Shown here piece after piece: positions 4,524 to 14,535 of a stretch of 53,112 nt of DNA. Numbering within the stretch: the first letter of the stretch is position 1; every line of letters begins with the position of its first letter. Both the position numbers and the translations under genes were made by a program. The notes under the pieces are model-generated. The model made no database searches, was not told where the DNA came from, and saw only the letters and a program-made list of their open reading frames with translations. Where the stretch lies: positions 1-53,112 of IMG/VR virus record IMGVR_UViG_3300016667_000843. The stretch is one strand, 5' to 3'. Origin of the DNA: a virus. Its lineage: Duplodnaviria > Caudoviricetes.

Positions 4524-4898
4524 ATGCCAAGAAAAAAAGTAGACTATAAAATTCCATTCATCAAGGAGAATGATAAAATAAATAATCTTCCAGCCGGGAG
4601 TGTGCCTCACCAAATTGGTCTTTATGAAATGCGTAAACCTAATTGGGAGCAGAAATATGACTGGCGTGAGAATGTTAAATTTGATGCCAACCTAAAGTTT
4701 ATCAATATGTATTATGGTGGTAAGATACTTTGGGAAGACACGGAAACGGGAGCAAGATACTGGATGAACCAGAGTGGTCTTGCCGCTGTATTAAAATCTA
4801 AATCAGTAGTTTATGGAACTGTATTGGGAACATGGATCTTCAAGAAACATGGAACCACTTATAGTATTTTTCCATACATGGAAAAGAGAAGGGGATAA
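4524..4898 (+). CDS. Hypothetical protein
   Basis: 124-aa ORF whose stop codon overlaps the tmRNA 5' end. Confidence 0.6.
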   Translation: MPRKKVDYKIPFIKENDKINNLPAGSVPHQIGLYEMRKPNWEQKYDWRENVKFDANLKFINMYYGGKILWEDTETGARYWMNQSGLAAVLKSKSVVYGTVLGTWIFKKHGTTYSIFPYMEKRRG

Positions 4899-5244
4899 AT
4901 TTGGTTTCGACAGGGGAGTTGAAGATTGATTTGCATAGCAGCGGGCGTTTATGACCGCTTAAAACCGTAAACAACAGTAAGTGCAAACGATAGCTCTTAC
5001 GCTCTTGCTGCTTGAAAGCAAGCGATTTAAAAGATACGCCGTTTGAGGATCCTTAAATCGTCATTAAACAAACTCGACCTTGTAGGGATAGTTCCTACTG
5101 CCAAGGTTTAAATTTTGGAACCATATCATACACAACCTGCTCTTTGGTCAAGTATATGATGGGTAATAAATAAAAGAGCTATGCCATGTGACAACAGATC
5201 TTTTGGATCTCTTCTGGACTCGGGTTCAACTCCCGATATCTCCA
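4891..5244 (+). ncRNA. ssrA: tmRNA; tag (A)ANDSSYALAA
   Basis: 5' GGGGATA pairs with 3' TATCTCC-A including G3.U70; 5' GGTTTCGAC motif; T-arm TCGGG-TTCAACT-CCCGA; tag ORF 4983-5015 GCA AAC GAT AGC TCT TAC GCT CTT GCT GCT TGA. Confidence 0.95.
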
Positions 5245-8941: not shown

Positions 8942-9373
8942 ATGGACAGTCCTATCATTAAAGCTGCAAAGCTTCCTCAACGTGGGCAATTGGCTCATGT
9001 TGATCATATTCCAGGCGGTAAGCGTTTCTGGAAGGTAGGACGCCTTTATCAGCTTACAGAATTCGTTATGCTATATAGCCAAAAAACCGATTTGGTTGAG
9101 GTTAAGCAAAAGACGCACCGACGTAATAATAGCCGTTGGCAGAATAATAACCTGTTCAATCCTTTTATTCCGGGGCACGAGCCACGGCATCGTCTTGAAA
9201 AGGGTAGTATTTTTATGCTACTTGCAAAGCCGGATTATAAGACCGTTATCGGTAATCCAAGCGACACTCTTACTGGATCGTATCAGTTGAATATTCTTTG
9301 CAACGAAAAGAGTGGTTGGATCCATCTTTCACATCGCCTTAGTCCCCGTTATTATTGTTGCCCCATTAAGTGA
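8942..9373 (+). CDS. Hypothetical protein
   Basis: ATG 5 nt after the upstream stop; its stop overlaps the next start (GTGA). Confidence 0.65.
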   Translation: MDSPIIKAAKLPQRGQLAHVDHIPGGKRFWKVGRLYQLTEFVMLYSQKTDLVEVKQKTHRRNNSRWQNNNLFNPFIPGHEPRHRLEKGSIFMLLAKPDYKTVIGNPSDTLTGSYQLNILCNEKSGWIHLSHRLSPRYYCCPIK

Positions 9374-10212
9374 AGAAGAAAGAAAATAAAATGCCTCGTT
9401 CAAACTCTGTATTTACTATCAGTTCCAGCCGTCTACTTGACAGTATTTGTTCAGAAGAAAAGTTCACGTCAAAGACCGGTCTGGAACAGATTGAGTATCT
9501 AAACAAGTATCGTTCCCGCCGTGGTCTATATCGCTGGGGTCGTAATAGCATCATGGATAACGTTATTGATGATCAGCCTGGAAAGACCGTAACATTTAAT
9601 CCTATTCGTTGGAAGGGACAGCCATGCAATCCCATTACGTTTCGGTATGTAGGTGGCGATATTGAATATAGTATCCGATATCCGGTGCAGAGCCGTCACG
9701 GTTTGGATCCGGATAGCATTAATGGCGTTATCTATGATTTTATGCCTAATGGCGATGCCTATATTGAGCGTGGTATCAAGAGATTTCTTCGTCATGGTGT
9801 GCATAGTCAATGGGGCAGTAATGACGAGCATGATAAGCTTTTCAGATATCTATTCAAGCAGTATGAAAATGCATGGCTTGATCTAAAGCGCCGTAAGGTT
9901 GCAGAGATTAAGGCTACTCTTGATACTGATAGTGTTAATGAGTTTGTAGCAGCAAAGCGTGCCCAGCATACCCAGGCTATCATGGATATTGCAATGTCTG
10001 TTGGCAATCTAACTGCAAAGCTTGAAACCTATCGTAATCGTATCGGCAGCGTTAATACTGCATATGAAGCAGAGAAGATGTTTGAGGAAGTAGAAATGGC
10101 ATTCCGAAACTTCAACTATGTTCAGGATCGTAATCAGAAGCGTCTAAATAAGAATGTTCGGCTTCCTGGCGGTAAGAACGTTAAGAAGCTTGCAGAAAAT
10201 AATCCGGAGTGA
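9370..10212 (+). CDS. Hypothetical protein with C-terminal coiled coil
   Basis: 280-aa ORF with consistent codon usage; alternative ATG at 9391. Confidence 0.7.
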   Translation: MKKKENKMPRSNSVFTISSSRLLDSICSEEKFTSKTGLEQIEYLNKYRSRRGLYRWGRNSIMDNVIDDQPGKTVTFNPIRWKGQPCNPITFRYVGGDIEYSIRYPVQSRHGLDPDSINGVIYDFMPNGDAYIERGIKRFLRHGVHSQWGSNDEHDKLFRYLFKQYENAWLDLKRRKVAEIKATLDTDSVNEFVAAKRAQHTQAIMDIAMSVGNLTAKLETYRNRIGSVNTAYEAEKMFEEVEMAFRNFNYVQDRNQKRLNKNVRLPGGKNVKKLAENNPE

Positions 10213-10266
10213 AAAAATAGTTTACAAAGTTAACTTGCTCCACTATATTTAAAGAGTGAGTTAGAT

Positions 10267-10339
10267 GGGCGTGTAGCTCAATTGGGAGAGCACCGGCTTT
10301 GCAAGCCGGGGGTCATCGGTTCGACCCCGATCATGTCCA
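10267..10339 (+). tRNA. tRNA-Ala(UGC)
   Basis: GGGCGTG/CATGTCC acceptor with G3.U70; CCGGC-TTTGCAA-GCCGG anticodon arm. Confidence 0.96.
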
Positions 10340-10344
10340 CTTCG

Positions 10345-10759
10345 TATCTTGATAACTTAATATTTAGATCCTATCCGATGGACCGTTCATCGTCTTTGAG
10401 GTCCGATAAGGCAATGGGATTAAAGGAGCCGTAAGTAGCCGCCAGCGCACTAATGTTAAGATTATTATTGGGTATAATGCTGGTTGGGGAAAATCAAGAG
10501 CAATCTTGTAAATCGGAAATAATATTATATGTAACTCTAACATGATGATTAGAGATAGTCAGAAGCGACCTGACTAGCCGTGAAGACCAAGGTATTCCTT
10601 TCTTGGTAATAATGGTGACAAAGCCCCTTCTCGGGAAAGAGAACGCAGATAGAAGCGTTAAGCAAGCAAGCCTACTTTATAATGTTTATGGAACTTGTAT
10701 CTATCATTTTTATGAACTCGGTATATTGTATGTGCGATGTATGATATGCTGGGTTTATA
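10345..10759 (+). ncRNA. Candidate large structured non-coding RNA
   Basis: No credible ORF; at least eight helices, including a GCAA tetraloop and a G.U-rich 22-bp hairpin; lies between tRNA genes. Confidence 0.55.
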
Positions 10760-10774
10760 TTCCGCTTTAGCTCA
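10757..10774 (+). repeat. 18-bp direct repeat ATATTCCGCTTTAGCTCA (copy 1; copy 2 at 11186-11203 includes the tRNA-Asn 5' end)
   Basis: Exact match at both positions, flanking the HNH gene. Confidence 0.9.
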
Positions 10775-10836
10775 AGTTTGTGAGCTAACTCATATAACGG
10801 CATAGCATTTTGTGTTATGCCGTTATATTTATTTGT

Positions 10837-11199
10837 ATGAACAAATATGAAACAAAAGTTTGTGTTAAGCATGGAGAAACAGCCTTTGTATTAGAAGGCA
10901 GAGGTTATTATCGTTGCACTAAATGTCGTTCCGAAAAAGTGCAAAACTATCGTGATAATCTTAAAATAAAAGCCGTTGAGTATAAGGGTGGCAAATGCGA
11001 ATGTTGTGGATATAATAAATGCATATCCGCATTAGAGTTTCACCATAAAGAACCAAATGAAAAAGATTTTGCAATAAGTCATAAAGGGTATACAAGAAGC
11101 TGGGAAGTTGTTAGATTAGAGTTAGATAAGTGCTTGATGCTATGTGCAAACTGCCATAGAGAAAAGCATGAAGAAATGAAAACAAATATTCCGCTTTAG
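10837..11199 (+). mobile_element. Free-standing HNH homing endonuclease inserted at a tRNA gene
   Basis: YKGGKCECCGY...LEFHH...ELDKCLMLCANCHRE; flanked by the duplicated tRNA 5' end; its stop codon lies inside the tRNA. Confidence 0.85.
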
Positions 11200-11310
11200 C
11201 TCAGTTGGTAGAGCGTTCGGCTGTGGAGGTTGAATACGTGTTCTGTTGGTGCAAACCCAAAAACCTCAAGGATAACCGGATGGTCCCTGGTTCGAGTCCA
11301 GGAGGCGGAG
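11190..11310 (+). tRNA. tRNA-Asn(GUU) interrupted by a 48-nt insert (11225-11272) in the anticodon
   Basis: TCCGCTT/AGGCGGA-G73 acceptor, GCTC/GAGC D-arm, TTCGG/CCGGA anticodon stem, CCTGG-TTCGAGT-CCAGG T-arm. Removing the insert restores the loop CT-GTT-AA. Confidence 0.8.
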
Positions 11311-11332
11311 TTTTTAGTAAAGTAAATTTTTA

Positions 11333-11369
11333 GACCCTGATGTTTAATGCATCAGGGTTTTTTCTTTTT
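11333..11369 (+). terminator. Intrinsic terminator
   Basis: GACCCTGATG/CATCAGGGTT stem followed by a long T tract. Confidence 0.8.
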
Positions 11370-11380
11370 AAGCTATAGTC

Positions 11381-11818
11381 ATGGGAATAGAAAATCAAAT
11401 AATAGCGTTATCTGGTGGTTTTGATATTATTCACCCTGGTCATATCCGAATGATCAAGGGTGCTCAAAACTTTGGGCGTGTTATGATAATCCTTAACAGC
11501 GACAAATGGGTTTTAAAGAAAAGGGGTATTGTAATGATGCCCTGGGATGAACGTAAAGAAATCTTATTGTCTATAAAGGGTGTAGACAGCGTAGAACGTG
11601 TAGATGATAGTGATGGAACAGTCTGCGAAGCTCTGAAAAGATTACGCCCTAATGTATTTGGTAATGGTGGTATTCGTGGACAGAGGAACACTCCAGAACG
11701 TCAATTGTGTAATGAGTTAGGTATTGCTTGTATTTGGGGAATAGGCGGTGGAGAGCGTGATGTTTATAGCAATGATATTCTCGAGAAGATATATTCTGCC
11801 AAACGACCCAATATTTAA
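11381..11818 (+). CDS. Cytidylyltransferase-family (HIGH) nucleotidyltransferase, RfaE/TagD/RibL-like
   Basis: SGGFDIIHPGH, NSDKW, ERKEIL...VDSV. Confidence 0.88.
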   Translation: MGIENQIIALSGGFDIIHPGHIRMIKGAQNFGRVMIILNSDKWVLKKRGIVMMPWDERKEILLSIKGVDSVERVDDSDGTVCEALKRLRPNVFGNGGIRGQRNTPERQLCNELGIACIWGIGGGERDVYSNDILEKIYSAKRPNI

Positions 11819-12360
11819 TGGTTATGAATAAAAAGTTATTAAGAGAATATATTGAACTAGTAGTTGCAAAAGCTTTAATGGAGGCGGGTACTATTGGTAC
11901 AATATCATCCAGAAGCACTTCATCTGCTATTTCAACTAGTTCAACGCTTGGTAGCACTTCTACTACAAGTTCTGAAAAGACTAAAAGTAGTGGAAAAGAT
12001 ACAACTAGCAGTTCTGACAATGAAGATACAATATCAAATATTGAAGATATGGTTAAATCTAATACAGAAGAAATTAAAGATAATAAAAAATCTATTAATA
12101 CCGCAGCTCATAATATGGCATCATATACCAACAATATGATATCGGCTACAAATAAAACCGCAGATGGCTTAAATAAAGCGGCTCAAGCAACGAAAGATTT
12201 AAATCGTCCTAATAATTCAAAAGACGATATAAGAAATGCAATTGATCAGCAGGAAAAGTCTTTTACAACTGCGGCAACTGGAACCAAACAAAATTCCGGA
12301 GAATTACAGAAAACTTTAACTACATTACAAACACTAGACGGCGCAACAAAAACAAAGTGA
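11818..12360 (+). CDS. Ser/Thr-rich hypothetical protein with LLREYI N-terminal motif (candidate internal head protein)
   Basis: KKLLREYIELVV...LMEA, then low-complexity and coiled-coil sequence. Confidence 0.6.
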   Translation: MVMNKKLLREYIELVVAKALMEAGTIGTISSRSTSSAISTSSTLGSTSTTSSEKTKSSGKDTTSSSDNEDTISNIEDMVKSNTEEIKDNKKSINTAAHNMASYTNNMISATNKTADGLNKAAQATKDLNRPNNSKDDIRNAIDQQEKSFTTAATGTKQNSGELQKTLTTLQTLDGATKTK

Positions 12361-12404
12361 TATTTTTTAAACTTTTGTAGTTTCGTTATGTAGTCTATAT
12401 GAAT

Positions 12405-12478
12405 CGGAGTATAGCTCAGTCTGGTAGAGCGCCGCATTTGGGATGCGGAAGTCACAAGTTCGAATCCTGTTACTCCGA
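12405..12478 (+). tRNA. tRNA-Pro(UGG)
   Basis: CGGAGTA/TACTCCG acceptor; CCGCA-TTTGGGA-TGCGG anticodon arm. Confidence 0.95.
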
Positions 12479-12492
12479 CTACTTATAAGCAT

Positions 12493-12687
12493 ATGTTAAC
12501 AACAAAAAATATTCGCAAGCTATTAAAAGACACAGAAGGTCTATCAACAGTTGAGTATATTATCATTCTTTGTTTGATAGCCGTTGTTTGTTTTGCCATC
12601 TGGAGACAGTTTGGTGAGACTGTAAAGAGCAAAGTTCAAGGTGCAGATAACCTTGTAGGAACTTTGCCAACAGAATCATCACCCTGA
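12493..12687 (+). CDS. flp: Flp/Fap family (Tad) pilin
   Basis: Basic leader LLKDTEG, then LSTVEY (G-x4-EY prepilin motif), a hydrophobic helix and FGETV; 64 aa. Confidence 0.85.
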   Translation: MLTTKNIRKLLKDTEGLSTVEYIIILCLIAVVCFAIWRQFGETVKSKVQGADNLVGTLPTESSP

Positions 12688-12729
12688 TTACAGTTTAAAC
12701 ATCATATTGTGTTCATGTATCTTTAGAGC

Positions 12730-13749
12730 ATGAATACTAATATTAAGATTGATGTTGTAATAGATTTAGCTCACGGCGATAGCGGTAAAGGTAAAGTATC
12801 TCATGCCTTGCTTGCCAAACGTGAATATACACATTGTTTAAGGTTTAATGGCGGCGGCAATGCTGGTCATACCATTTACCATGAAGGAAAGAAGTTTGTA
12901 ACCCATCTTATTCCTTCCGGCGTATTTCATGGTATCCGTTCCGTAATCGGTCCCGGTTGTGTTGCCAGAACTTCAAAACTTCTTGAAGAAATAAAGTATC
13001 TTGAGGATAATCTTGGCAAGAAGATTAATGTTGGTATTGCTAATAACGTTCATCTTGTTACAGAGGAACATTTAACAGAGGATAGCGGCGATACACGTAT
13101 TGGAACAACCAAAACAGGTAACGGTCCCGCTTATTCTGCAAAATATTCTCGTAGAGGCGTAAGAGCAGAAACCGATCCTGTTCTTAAATCTTACGTTACC
13201 GATATGTATCAAGAGTTTTATACTGGTAAACCAGTTAGGATTTTAGCAGAAGGCGCACAATCATTTAACTTGGATATTGATTGGGGCGATTATCCTTATG
13301 TTACCAGTAGTCATTGTGGTGTAGGCGGTTTGCTTAACAACGGCTTTAATCATAAGCACTTAAGAAACGTTTATGGTGTTGTAAAGGCTTACGATACGTA
13401 TGTAGGAGCCAAGCAGTTCCAGCCCGCAGGAGACGTTTTTAACCGCATTCAAGAGACAGGACAGGAGTTTGGTGCGACCACAGGCAGAAAGCGTCAGGTT
13501 AACTGGCTTAACTGGAATATTATTGAACGTGGAATTCGTATGAATGGGGTTAACACGTTGATTGTTAATAAGGGTGATGTGTTAGATCAAGTTGGAGCTT
13601 GGGGAATTATTGAAAACGGAGAGACAATCCAGTTTCAATCCAAGGAATTATTCCAAAAATGGTTGGACGATAAGACATATGCATTGGATATGAATCATAT
13701 TGTTTTTTCAGAAGGCGCAGACGATTTAACCTTTGTTGATCGTTTGTAG
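12730..13749 (+). CDS. purA: Adenylosuccinate synthetase (short form)
   Basis: GDSGKGK, GGGNAGHT, IGTTKTGNGPAY, EGAQ, DWGDYPYVTSS, EFGATTGRKR; leaderless promoter TTTAAA-18nt-TATCTT-6nt-ATG. Confidence 0.93.
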   Translation: MNTNIKIDVVIDLAHGDSGKGKVSHALLAKREYTHCLRFNGGGNAGHTIYHEGKKFVTHLIPSGVFHGIRSVIGPGCVARTSKLLEEIKYLEDNLGKKINVGIANNVHLVTEEHLTEDSGDTRIGTTKTGNGPAYSAKYSRRGVRAETDPVLKSYVTDMYQEFYTGKPVRILAEGAQSFNLDIDWGDYPYVTSSHCGVGGLLNNGFNHKHLRNVYGVVKAYDTYVGAKQFQPAGDVFNRIQETGQEFGATTGRKRQVNWLNWNIIERGIRMNGVNTLIVNKGDVLDQVGAWGIIENGETIQFQSKELFQKWLDDKTYALDMNHIVFSEGADDLTFVDRL

Positions 13750-13772
13750 GATATAGCTGTATATTTACCCAC

Positions 13773-14144
13773 ATGGCAAAAACAAAAGAAGTAAAAAAAG
13801 AAGTTGCTGTAATAGTCAGAGAAGAAAGACCTTGGGGTTGGTTTGAAACAATCCAAGAAGGCGAGAAGTATAAAGTTAAGCGTCTTTTTATAAAAAAAGG
13901 TTGCAGACTATCATTACAATCGCATGATCAACGTGATGAACATTGGATTGTTATTAGTGGCTTTGGAAATGTTGAAATAGAAGAAGCTGAACGCTTTATT
14001 GGAATTGGCGGGCATATCTTTATTCCAAAGCGTCACAAACATAGAATTACTGCAACCAAAGATATGGAAATCATAGAAGTTCAAATGGGCGTCTGTGATG
14101 AAAAAGATATAAAAAGATACGAAGACGATTACGGTCGGGCTTGA
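13773..14144 (+). CDS. Mannose-6-phosphate isomerase type II-like cupin
   Basis: ERPWGWF...LSLQSH..RDEHW...HRI...EVQMG...EKDIKRYEDDYGR. Confidence 0.88.
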   Translation: MAKTKEVKKEVAVIVREERPWGWFETIQEGEKYKVKRLFIKKGCRLSLQSHDQRDEHWIVISGFGNVEIEEAERFIGIGGHIFIPKRHKHRITATKDMEIIEVQMGVCDEKDIKRYEDDYGRA

Positions 14145-14175
14145 ACAAAAAGATAGACTTGATCTATCTTATCAT

Positions 14176-14247
14176 AGCGGGTTGGAGAAGTAGTAACTCA
14201 TCTGGCTCATAATCAGAAGATCGATGGTGCAAATCCGTCACCCGCAA
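14176..14247 (+). tRNA. tRNA-Met(CAU), initiator-like but atypical
   Basis: A1:A72 mismatch, GCGGGT/ACCCGC acceptor, CTCATAA loop; T-loop TGCAAAT; anticodon stem lacks the three G-C pairs. Confidence 0.8.
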
Positions 14248-14259
14248 TTTAAGTGTTCT

Positions 14260-14331
14260 GCGGAAATAGCTCAATGGTAGAGTCCGAGTTTTCCAAACTC
14301 GTTGTTGTCGGTTCGAGTCCGATTTTCCGCT
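14260..14331 (+). tRNA. tRNA-Gly(UCC)
   Basis: GCGGAAA/TTTCCGC-U73; CGAGT-TTTCCAA-ACTCG anticodon arm. Confidence 0.95.
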
Positions 14332-14334
14332 CTT

Positions 14335-14535
14335 ATGCACATAGTTCAGTTAAACCCTCCTATACCGTTAACAACGCCGAAAGGAAAAGGTTTAGCTCAC
14401 ATGGTAATAGATTACGGAATAGAGCATGAACTTTGTTGGGTCGTCTTTATAGATGAAACCGGCGAATGTTGGACCTATCGTAACTCCGAAATACGTGCTC
14501 AAAAAAATTTAACTTATGGCAGAACATTAGGTTGA
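14335..14535 (+). CDS. Small hypothetical phage protein
   Basis: MHIVQLNPPIPL.TPKGKG.A..VIDYG.EH...WVVF...GECWT; ATG 3 nt after tRNA-Gly. Confidence 0.7.
   Translation: MHIVQLNPPIPLTTPKGKGLAHMVIDYGIEHELCWVVFIDETGECWTYRNSEIRAQKNLTYGRTLG

Follow-up and report, generated by a model that had tools for sequence, protein, structure and literature searches.

A 48-nucleotide insert that splits the anticodon of a phage tRNA-Asn gene belongs to a family of structured inserts in large phages and may mimic the top half of a tRNA

We analysed a stretch of viral DNA of 53,112 nucleotides (nt), IMG/VR record IMGVR_UViG_3300016667_000843 (hereafter, the window), in which a tRNA gene is interrupted within its anticodon by a short structured insert. 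The 53-kb record is estimated to be 14% complete, and the window is therefore a fragment of a very large phage. Positions 11190-11310 (+ strand) are a full-length tRNA-Asn(GUU) gene split in its anticodon by 48 nt. Rfam model RF00005 (tRNA) covers this interval end to end, model positions 1-71 being matched with an extra stretch of about 51 nt in the anticodon loop (51.4 bits, E = 4.5e-10; the gathering score is 29). The 5' exon (11190-11224, + strand; tRNA positions 1-35) comprises the acceptor 5' strand, the D-arm, the anticodon stem 5' strand and the loop letters CUGU; the 3' exon (11273-11310, + strand; positions 36-73) comprises UAA, the anticodon stem 3' strand, the variable loop, the T-arm, the acceptor 3' strand and G73. 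The acceptor stem, TCCGCTT/AGGCGGA, has U1-A72 and is followed by G73, a combination which we take to be typical of bacterial Asn tRNA bodies. The D and T arms are normal, and the anticodon stem TTCGG/CCGGA encloses a loop that reads CTGT, the 48 nt of 11225-11272, and TAA, so that the break lies between positions 35 and 36. CCA is not encoded at the 3' end. In its default mode ARAGORN called six other tRNAs and a transfer-messenger RNA (tmRNA) in the window, and not this gene. Just upstream lies a free-standing HNH endonuclease gene (10837-11199, + strand; 120 amino acids from its ATG; phrog_2255, E = 2.2e-31), the stop codon of which falls inside the tRNA (acceptor stem and D-arm). No Pfam match was found for this HNH protein at E 0.01.

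The splice junction is ambiguous from the window sequence alone: the intron mode of ARAGORN proposes tRNA-Ile(GAT) with a 48-nt intron, and tRNA-His(GTG) can be drawn too. The window region was found in 20 public runs from 11 studies, all of them freshwater, estuary or reservoir metagenomes, and four runs were compared over positions 10500-12500. One contig in each of X2 and X4 (DNA runs) and X20 joined 11224 directly to 11273, with no ambiguous letters. The X20 contig (record 17, 353 nt) consists of 10500-10756 with 4 differences, then 11186-11224, then 32 letters past the joint; its left side (10500-10756) is phage-specific. It is a close relative of the window phage without the 48 nt and without 10757-11185. 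The insert-less allele reads CTGTTAA, which fixes both the Asn(GUU) identity and the insert boundaries, and these are the ones that a first, sequence-only reading of the window had chosen when it removed 11225-11272 to obtain CU-GUU-AA. That reading had also held the Asn-type body to be intact, in agreement with the Rfam score and with a comparison, anticodon loop masked, against 725 distinct uninterrupted tRNAs, in which the five closest bodies were all Asn. A very similar uninterrupted tRNA-Asn is found in Synechococcus phage MA01. Among cultured phages, matches to the window region were confined to four Synechococcus phages, whose intact Asn genes align over their 5' half only, and another interrupted gene, that of contig L119, had no match in cultured phages.

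The insert itself (11225-11272, + strand), a putative mini-tRNA intron, could be divided into parts, its ends being given by the insert-less DNA allele and its helices by the covariation reported below. It begins with a G (11225; position 1' of the insert), followed by the 5' strand of a helix P1 (GAGGTT, 11226-11231), which pairs with AACCTC at 11262-11267, and by a linker (11232-11245). Next come a T-arm-like stem (11246-11249 with 11257-11260) with the loop UGCAAAC (11250-11256), a spacer at 11261, the 3' strand of P1, position 72' (11268) and a tail, AGGA (11269-11272). The inner hairpin is thus TTGG-UGCAAAC-CCAA, with a 4-bp stem and a 7-nt loop of the T-loop type, and this is the sole reading that holds across the family of related inserts. 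The GNRA-loop hairpin proposed at first for the same letters (TTGGT-GCAA-ACCCAA) was given up, since what is conserved is the 7-nt T-arm signature and not a GCAA tetraloop. A repeat search found the 48-nt insert once in the window. The fold energy of the whole gene is unremarkable (minimum free energy z = -1.06) and hence uninformative, so that support for the insert comes from comparison and not from thermodynamics.

Comparable genes were sought in IMG/VR. A first scan with the window body and a loop of CTGT, 30-60 nt and TAA returned 21 loci, of which two were excluded: L120 (two adjacent tRNAs, a false match) and L121 (a giant-virus metagenome-assembled genome, MAG, with an unrelated insert). 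The remaining 19 gave 12 distinct Asn-type sequences, on contigs of up to 490 kb. Further genes were obtained with looser Asn, Lys and Thr-style patterns and with a covariance model, R1, built from 13 members, to which the window insert scores 56.3 bits; the giant-virus MAG loci L163, L176, L187 and L192 were dropped like L121, their inserts being unrelated, and further false matches to the patterns were removed. In total, 24 distinct genes in large phage contigs, window included, carry the module. Sixteen are Asn(GUU), four Lys(UUU), one is Gln(UUG) on a typical Gln body, one Val-like (UAC) and one Ile-like (UAU); the last is a second copy in L178, with an ambiguous class II body. This second gene (L178:1952-2090) directly follows an interrupted Asn gene and has a long variable arm; its parse by script was ambiguous, and after removal of the insert ARAGORN reads the anticodon GUU, an odd pairing of body and anticodon. 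Carriers come from freshwater, soil and animal-associated samples. In cellular genomes 47 loci fit the pattern, mostly archaeal, and once archaeal inserts were left out the module was carried only by L223 and L244. In these two, one and the same contig segment, which holds an interrupted tRNA-Asn and an interrupted tRNA-Gln, was binned into two differently named bacterial MAGs of one project; the segment is probably a phage contig mis-binned by coverage.

One carrier is a cultured phage. By BLAST, the interrupted genes of the surveyed genome G002 lie at the same coordinates in Agrobacterium phage Atu_ph07 (MF403008.1), one for Asn at 323905-324023 and one for Lys at 68159-68280. Neither is annotated in its GenBank record. 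The published description of this phage, in the sections accessible to us, lists tRNAs for all amino acids except Asn and Thr, and those sections mention no intron, ligase or HNH gene. In the segments 322300-325600 and 66300-70000 of MF403008.1 there are no GenBank tRNA features, and ARAGORN finds intact His and Ser genes there.

All members except L117 follow a common plan: a 1' nucleotide, the helix P1 (4-7 bp), a linker that in some members holds a small additional hairpin, a second hairpin P3, position 72' and a tail, for a total of 35-71 nt. P3 has 4-5 bp and a 7-nt loop, and its 3' strand meets the P1 3' strand with 0-2 spacer nt. Covariation was counted on an unfitted MAFFT alignment (A1) of 17 members, in which the three rows of the L048 group are out of register in P1; an unanchored alignment of the inserts (A2) had been discarded on account of a mis-registered P1. 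Within the two insert helices, 90.1% of 172 cells pair, compared to 57.0% in shuffles and 30 to 48% when the partners are slid. The insert covariation score was 0.749, against 0.193, and was equalled by none of 500 shuffles. Changes on both sides were seen for 6 of the 6 pairs of P1, the helix noted at first in the window as GAGGTT/AACCTC, and for 4 of the 5 pairs of P3. Among members with common linker and tail motifs (AAAGGUAA..., AAAAG), P1 varies (GAAGCT, GATGCT, AGAGGC, GATACT), which argues for compensatory changes within one homologous element. The tRNA's own helices are paired in 99 to 100% of cells across the 17 homologues and covary as well, so that a pseudogene is unlikely. A pseudo-tRNA, the outcome that the sequence-only reading would have accepted had relatives shown no such conservation, can likewise be set aside, as position and structure of the insert are both conserved. 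Its central claim, a structured, non-canonical insert in an otherwise intact Asn tRNA, now extends to 23 further distinct genes.

The T-loop of a tRNA has the 7-nt consensus U-(U/G)-C-R-A-N-N, closed by a G-C pair. P3 loops of the family read UUCGAUU, UUCAAAU, UGCAACU and similar; in the 17 aligned members the closing G-C pair is always present, loop positions U1 and C3 are near-invariant and A5 is invariant. The hairpin of the window insert shows this motif, and L117 is the exception in the family. Counting 1':72', P1, the spacer and P3 as stacked layers, a script gave 12 layers, as in the acceptor plus T stem of a tRNA, for 16 of the 24 members. L223b and L266, read by eye, reach 12 as well; the count is 11 in four members, and neither L117 nor the second L178 copy fits the scheme. 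Position 1' is a G in 22 of 24 members. The tail is 4 nt long in 21 and 1 nt in the three of the L048 group; it is N-CCA in five members (ACCA in L154 and L266, UCCA in L223a, L223b and L006), ACCG in one and AAAG in six. L154 and L266 are complete mimics, with a 7-bp stem that includes G1'-C72', a 5-bp T stem, a T-loop and ACCA. These sequence comparisons show an insert built of a T-arm-type hairpin with a closing helix stacked on it, which suggests mimicry of the acceptor/T-arm half of a tRNA, a 'tRNA within a tRNA'.

Two members allowed the ends of the mimic to be compared with the exon junction. ARAGORN reads both L266 and L006 as Thr(TGT). If the insert is taken from G1' to the A of CCA, the junction falls at 34/35 and the predicted joined loops are CUU|ACAA (UAC, Val) in L266 and CUU|AUAA (UAU) in L006. 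With the loop masked, the L266 body is nearest, narrowly, to Val(UAC) and the L006 body to CAT-type tRNAs, which presumably include Ile2; Thr was not found in the top 8 of either. This modestly supports the view that the mimic ends would define the exon junction in these two genes, in agreement with the window, where the ends fixed by the insert-less allele are 1' and 76'.

The acceptor/T-arm minihelix is what RNase P and RNase Z recognise: their substrates have about 12 bp from the T-loop to position +1, a G at +1, and a discriminator with a CCA-type tail, and RNase P prefers a U at position -1 of its cut. The resemblance of the insert to this half of a tRNA points to tRNA end-processing nucleases and a ligase rather than to a mini-ribozyme. 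We propose that the pre-tRNA would be cut at both ends of the mimic by the cell's own tRNA end-maturation nucleases, RNase P cutting 5' of the insert's first nucleotide, after U35, and an RNase Z-type enzyme after mimic position 76' (73' in one subgroup). The resulting ends, a 3'-OH and a 5'-phosphate, would be kept next to each other by the tRNA body, and an ATP-dependent RNA ligase of the phage Rnl1 or Rnl2 type would seal the exons to give CU-GUU-AA. On the DNA level, the interrupted allele would spread by recombination, at times together with a neighbouring free-standing HNH gene. That the insert is spliced by some route we consider probable. The more specific proposal, a mobile mini-tRNA intron excised by RNase P- and RNase Z-type nucleases and sealed by an RNA ligase, may be correct, and we advance it tentatively. 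It is doubtful whether it would go as far as a third route of tRNA splicing in bacteria and phages, with a mini-tRNA intron cut by RNase P and an RNase Z-type nuclease and joined by a T4-type ligase.

Several observations weigh against this proposal. The U at -1, the last letter of the 5' exon, is present in 24 of 24 members, but this letter and the CUNU/UAA flanks were partly imposed by the search patterns. Positions 1' and 72' are mismatched in 17 of 24 members, usually as G.A, and CCA is absent from most tails (six have AAAG, and the window insert has AGGA). The count of 12 layers takes 1-2 unpaired spacer nt as stacked in several members, the window among them; the window linker has no GG to mimic a D-loop, and L117 lacks the T-loop hairpin. 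The usual cut of RNase Z is after position 73, and such a cut after 73' would leave 3 extra nt in the 21 members with 4-nt tails. A precedent in favour of the proposal is the tRNase Z of T. maritima, which reportedly cuts CCA-containing precursors precisely after A76 (PMC1540738). None of the runs covering window positions 9000-14500 is recorded as RNA, and X19 and X20, labelled RNA-Seq, consist of contigs and were flagged as probably DNA. One surveyed carrier genome, G003, has an intact Asn gene besides the interrupted one.

The enzyme content of the carriers counts in part for the proposal and in part against it. Ligases of PF09414 or PF09511 occur in 10 of 10 carrier records that are at least 90% complete (Rnl1 type in 6 of 10), but they are not enriched, as a ligase was also found in 5 of the 6 control records of large phages with a completeness of at least 90%. 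The controls are imperfect, since they carry other tRNA inserts. The presence of a ligase thus shows capacity only and was rejected as evidence; the window's own record, 14% complete, has none. An RNase Z-like protein was found in only 1 of 14 carrier records, so that the cuts would need host enzymes. RtcB was absent from all 12 carrier phage records searched, and the splicing endonuclease (PF01974) from all 14, a search in which four archaea served as positive control. Of the enzymes for the cut-and-ligate route considered at the outset, with a phage nuclease and RNA repair enzymes, ATP-dependent ligases are present in carriers, without enrichment over controls, and neither RtcB nor the splicing endonuclease was detected.

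The same results bear on another possibility, a genuine intron excised by a dedicated endonuclease, of phage or host origin, that would recognise the helix together with the T-loop hairpin and cut at both sites. Such cuts might produce a 2',3'-cyclic phosphate and a 5'-OH, mended by T4-like Pnkp and Rnl1 or by host RtcB. A conserved fold whose tails are mostly not CCA and whose 1':72' is usually mismatched would fit bespoke recognition better, and the Rnl1-type ligases of 6 of 10 complete carriers, as well as the HNH genes beside several members, are in keeping with it. No shared candidate nuclease turned up in the carriers, however, among which no whole-genome comparison was made, and the lack of RtcB (0 of 12) and of splicing endonuclease (0 of 14) speaks against it. 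It also leaves the 12-layer geometry and the N-CCA tails unexplained. We regard a dedicated endonuclease as unlikely.

A very small self-splicing or self-cleaving ribozyme could account for a compact conserved structure, for a 5' exon ending in U and for the many inserts that end in G (AAAG, ACAG, ACCG). Against it, the inserts are only 35-71 nt long and have no conserved unpaired nucleotides besides the T-loop, the terminal G is absent from the window and other members, and no Rfam ribozyme or intron family matched at E up to 10. Hammerhead, twister, pistol, hatchet and HDV-like ribozymes were not among the 13 Rfam matches (E up to 10) in 10900-11600. This explanation is very unlikely. A group I intron was rejected: its catalytic core, P3-P9, takes roughly 200 nt or more, and the insert has only 48 nt and no intron family match in Rfam at E up to 10. 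A bulge-helix-bulge drawn by hand at the 35/36 junction would require the top of the anticodon stem to be unpaired. Both conclusions had been reached from the window sequence (too short for a group I or II intron, no bulge-helix-bulge), and they stand with the Rfam result and the absence of splicing endonuclease from the 14 carriers. A 4-bp helix of positions 32-35 with 73'-76' was also tried and rejected, because position 34 would face an A in Asn genes or a C in Lys genes and pair with neither.

Another possibility is that the unspliced RNA of about 120 nt is itself the product, a tRNA-shaped decoy or regulator that soaks up anticodon nucleases or tRNA-binding enzymes, or offers a second elbow to a partner. 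PrrC targets tRNA-Lys, and colicin E5 targets GUN anticodons; the carriers are Asn and Lys tRNAs, the cellular counterparts of which are targets of anticodon nucleases. The absence of runs recorded as RNA over the region, and hence of evidence for a spliced RNA, also leaves room for such a function. The tRNA genes of five carrier genomes (G002, G003, G005, G007 and G009) were surveyed, one G009 tRNA being left out. The intact Asn gene that G003 keeps beside its interrupted one would suit a decoy. In three of the five, by contrast, the interrupted gene is the only Asn gene (G002 and G005, with 34 tRNAs each, and G007, with 14), and these are complete genomes with otherwise near-full tRNA sets. 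G002, G005 and G007 also have an interrupted Lys(UUU) gene, and intact His, Tyr and Ile genes, the alternative readings given by ARAGORN, are present in G002 and G005. In addition, the split loop always rejoins as a legitimate 7-nt anticodon loop that fits the isotype of the body, for five isotypes and two junction positions, and the gene also occurs without the insert in the same phage population. A decoy, or a masking of the anticodon as also envisaged in the sequence-only reading, is disfavoured because the interrupted gene is the sole Asn gene of three complete genomes, and we consider it improbable.

The surroundings of the window gene indicate mobility. At the left edge of the HNH cassette lies a degenerate duplicate of the tRNA 5' end (10757-10785, + strand), the first 18 nt of which (10757-10774) equal 11186-11203 exactly. 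The contig of the insert-less relative has its second joint here: 10756 is followed by 11186, 429 nt are missing, and 18 letters fit either side, the repeat including the first 14 nt of the tRNA. Between the duplicated fragment and the HNH start, a consensus scan predicts a terminator-like long hairpin with a T-rich run (10792-10828, + strand). The same scan gave an intrinsic-terminator-like hairpin with a T run at 11332-11370 (+ strand), 21 nt past the tRNA, and several Rfam near-misses align only there. In a second related phage, L125, the HNH cassette is absent, and tRNA and insert are identical to the window over 128 of 128 positions, in flanks of 88 to 91% identity; L125 aligns to both copies of the duplicated tRNA 5' end. 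Three haplotypes are thus found: with HNH gene and insert, with insert only, and with neither. An identical allele amid diverged flanks points to recent gene conversion or transfer. One may speculate that an RNase P cut at the tRNA 5' end would strip the stop codon from any HNH-tRNA co-transcript and produce a non-stop mRNA.

HNH genes were also found near some other members. In L115 an HNH gene 53% identical to that of the window lies 47 nt downstream of an interrupted tRNA-Asn, and in Atu_ph07 the interrupted Lys gene has a Pfam HNH gene 67 nt away and an RNA ligase gene (66519-67163) about 1 kb off on the other side. L118 has an HNH gene of another family at about 0.7 kb, and L116 is a weak case. 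For the other members examined, no endonuclease gene was found within about 1.3 kb, as judged from 10 chosen flanking open reading frames. In phage MA01 (L001:3090-3360) a featureless, G+C-rich stretch of about 270 nt separates the intact tRNA-Asn from an HNH endonuclease gene.

Such linkage might mean that the insert is selfish DNA that inactivates a dispensable tRNA gene, for instance a scar or an immunity insert destroying the target site of the neighbouring HNH enzyme; its tRNA likeness would then come from a tRNA fragment copied during repair. The HNH cassette does lie hard against the gene, bounded by the duplicated tRNA 5' end, one contig lacks both HNH gene and insert, and the host presumably supplies tRNA-Asn. 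Against this, compensatory changes keep both helices across homologous inserts sharing linker and tail motifs, the exons remain perfect tRNAs, and in L125 and most other members no HNH gene adjoins the interrupted tRNA. A selfish, inactivating insertion is accordingly quite improbable in our view.

The wider neighbourhood was described as well. Six ordinary tRNAs (Glu, Ala, Pro, Met, Gly and Arg) lie between 8496 and 16449 among metabolic genes (adenylosuccinate synthetase, amidoligase, GGACT, a cupin/mannose-6-phosphate isomerase domain and a cytidylyltransferase), and the phage tmRNA gene (4891-5244, tag ANDSSYALAA) is 6 kb upstream of the tRNA cluster. Inserts of other kinds were encountered during the scans. 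A class II Leu-like tRNA in G007 (L133:4666-4787) and a tRNA of G003 with G3:U70, of Ala type (L146:2161-2266), each have their anticodon loop interrupted by about 30-40 nt that form a simple long hairpin and lack a T-loop. A tRNA-Lys(TTT) gene on a 106-kb contig (L059) is interrupted by 25 nt immediately 3' of its anticodon, close to the canonical 37/38 position. A separate, large family of tRNA-like loci (L004, L017, L019 and many more, many of them from one metagenome) has a 45-55-nt insert after the D-arm, with a hairpin followed by a conserved ACAGCAA and no T-loop module. Another tRNA-like family (L013, L027, L036, L038, L042, L045 and others) has the motif CCTCCCTCA.GG..AAGG.CCAAAA between D and T arms.

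Several known systems share features with the inserts. The bulge-helix-bulge introns of archaeal and eukaryal tRNAs are short, lie in or near the anticodon loop at variable positions, and are spliced by proteins and sealed by a ligase; here, in contrast, no bulge-helix-bulge can be drawn, splicing endonuclease and RtcB are lacking (14 of 14 and 12 of 12 records), and the setting is that of bacterial phages, as the window has a tmRNA gene and one carrier infects Agrobacterium. Group I introns interrupt the anticodon loops of bacterial tRNAs (Azoarcus pre-tRNA-Ile, cyanobacterial tRNA-Leu), and are over 200 nt long with a catalytic core. The interrupted anticodon loop in a bacterial-type tRNA and the 5' exon ending in U are alike, whereas the present insert is 48 nt long (family range 35-71) and finds no group I match in Rfam. 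In the mascRNA of MALAT1 and in plant mitochondrial t-elements, tRNA-like signals are cut by RNase P and RNase Z, and minihelices are model substrates of RNase P. By analogy, a partial tRNA mimic, an acceptor-like stem on a T-arm, would mark end-processing sites within a longer RNA; the cuts in these systems release ends that are not rejoined, whereas here the mimic lies inside another tRNA and the flanks must be ligated.

Two further comparisons concern ligation and mobility. T4 Pnkp and Rnl1 repair an anticodon-loop break that a host defence nuclease makes in tRNA-Lys, the halves being held by the tRNA body. A phage ATP-dependent ligase is common to both situations, but the break would be gene-encoded here, and the link between ligase and insert is putative. 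Free-standing homing endonucleases are known beside introns or in tRNA clusters, as in collaborative homing at cyanophage psbA and in T4 SegB. As in collaborative homing, the HNH gene of the window adjoins the insert-bearing gene, both vary among relatives, and the allele is identical across diverged flanks. Unlike in collaborative homing, no endonuclease gene lies within about 1.3 kb of most family members, so that such adjacency holds in the window and only partly in the family (L115, the Atu_ph07 Lys gene, L118 and, weakly, L116).

The nearest published case is that of the tRNA introns of Lak megaphages. In the portions of that report available to us, these introns are termed 'enigmatic', their presence varies between related genomes, and no mechanism is given for them; of one, located in a tRNA read as Thr(TGT), it is said that it 'may itself encode a tRNA', and phage tRNA introns are said not to have been reported previously (Devoto et al. 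2019, PMC6784885). The two sets were compared by description only, and no Lak genome was recognised among the loci examined here. As described, both comprise short inserts in tRNAs of huge phages, polymorphic in presence and tRNA-like in one Lak case. The Lak phages differ in infecting gut Prevotella, in using an alternative code and in the isotypes named. The T-arm, 12-layer and N-CCA plan, the Asn and Lys carriers, the HNH linkage and the cultured carrier are features of the present family that are undefined in those portions of the Lak report. In the literature covered, which excluded subscription journals and supplements, we found neither a T-arm or minihelix intron in phage tRNAs nor a mechanism for Lak introns.

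Two mechanisms explain tRNA introns: self-splicing by group I introns, and protein splicing at a bulge-helix-bulge, which to our knowledge is absent from bacteria. The insert family fits neither. Judged from sequence comparison, a non-canonical intron is a plausible interpretation, and the mimicry of the top half of a tRNA is a new lead. The module is missed by standard annotation, as with Atu_ph07, published without a tRNA-Asn although interrupted Asn and Lys genes are present, and tRNA gene counts in viral metagenomics are probably underestimates. If the proposed excision is correct, phage RNA ligases would gain a housekeeping role beyond damage repair, and a CCA-ended minihelix RNA would be released that may have a function of its own. 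The family bears on why large phages so often keep RNA ligases, and on how homing endonucleases and inserts travel through phage tRNA clusters.

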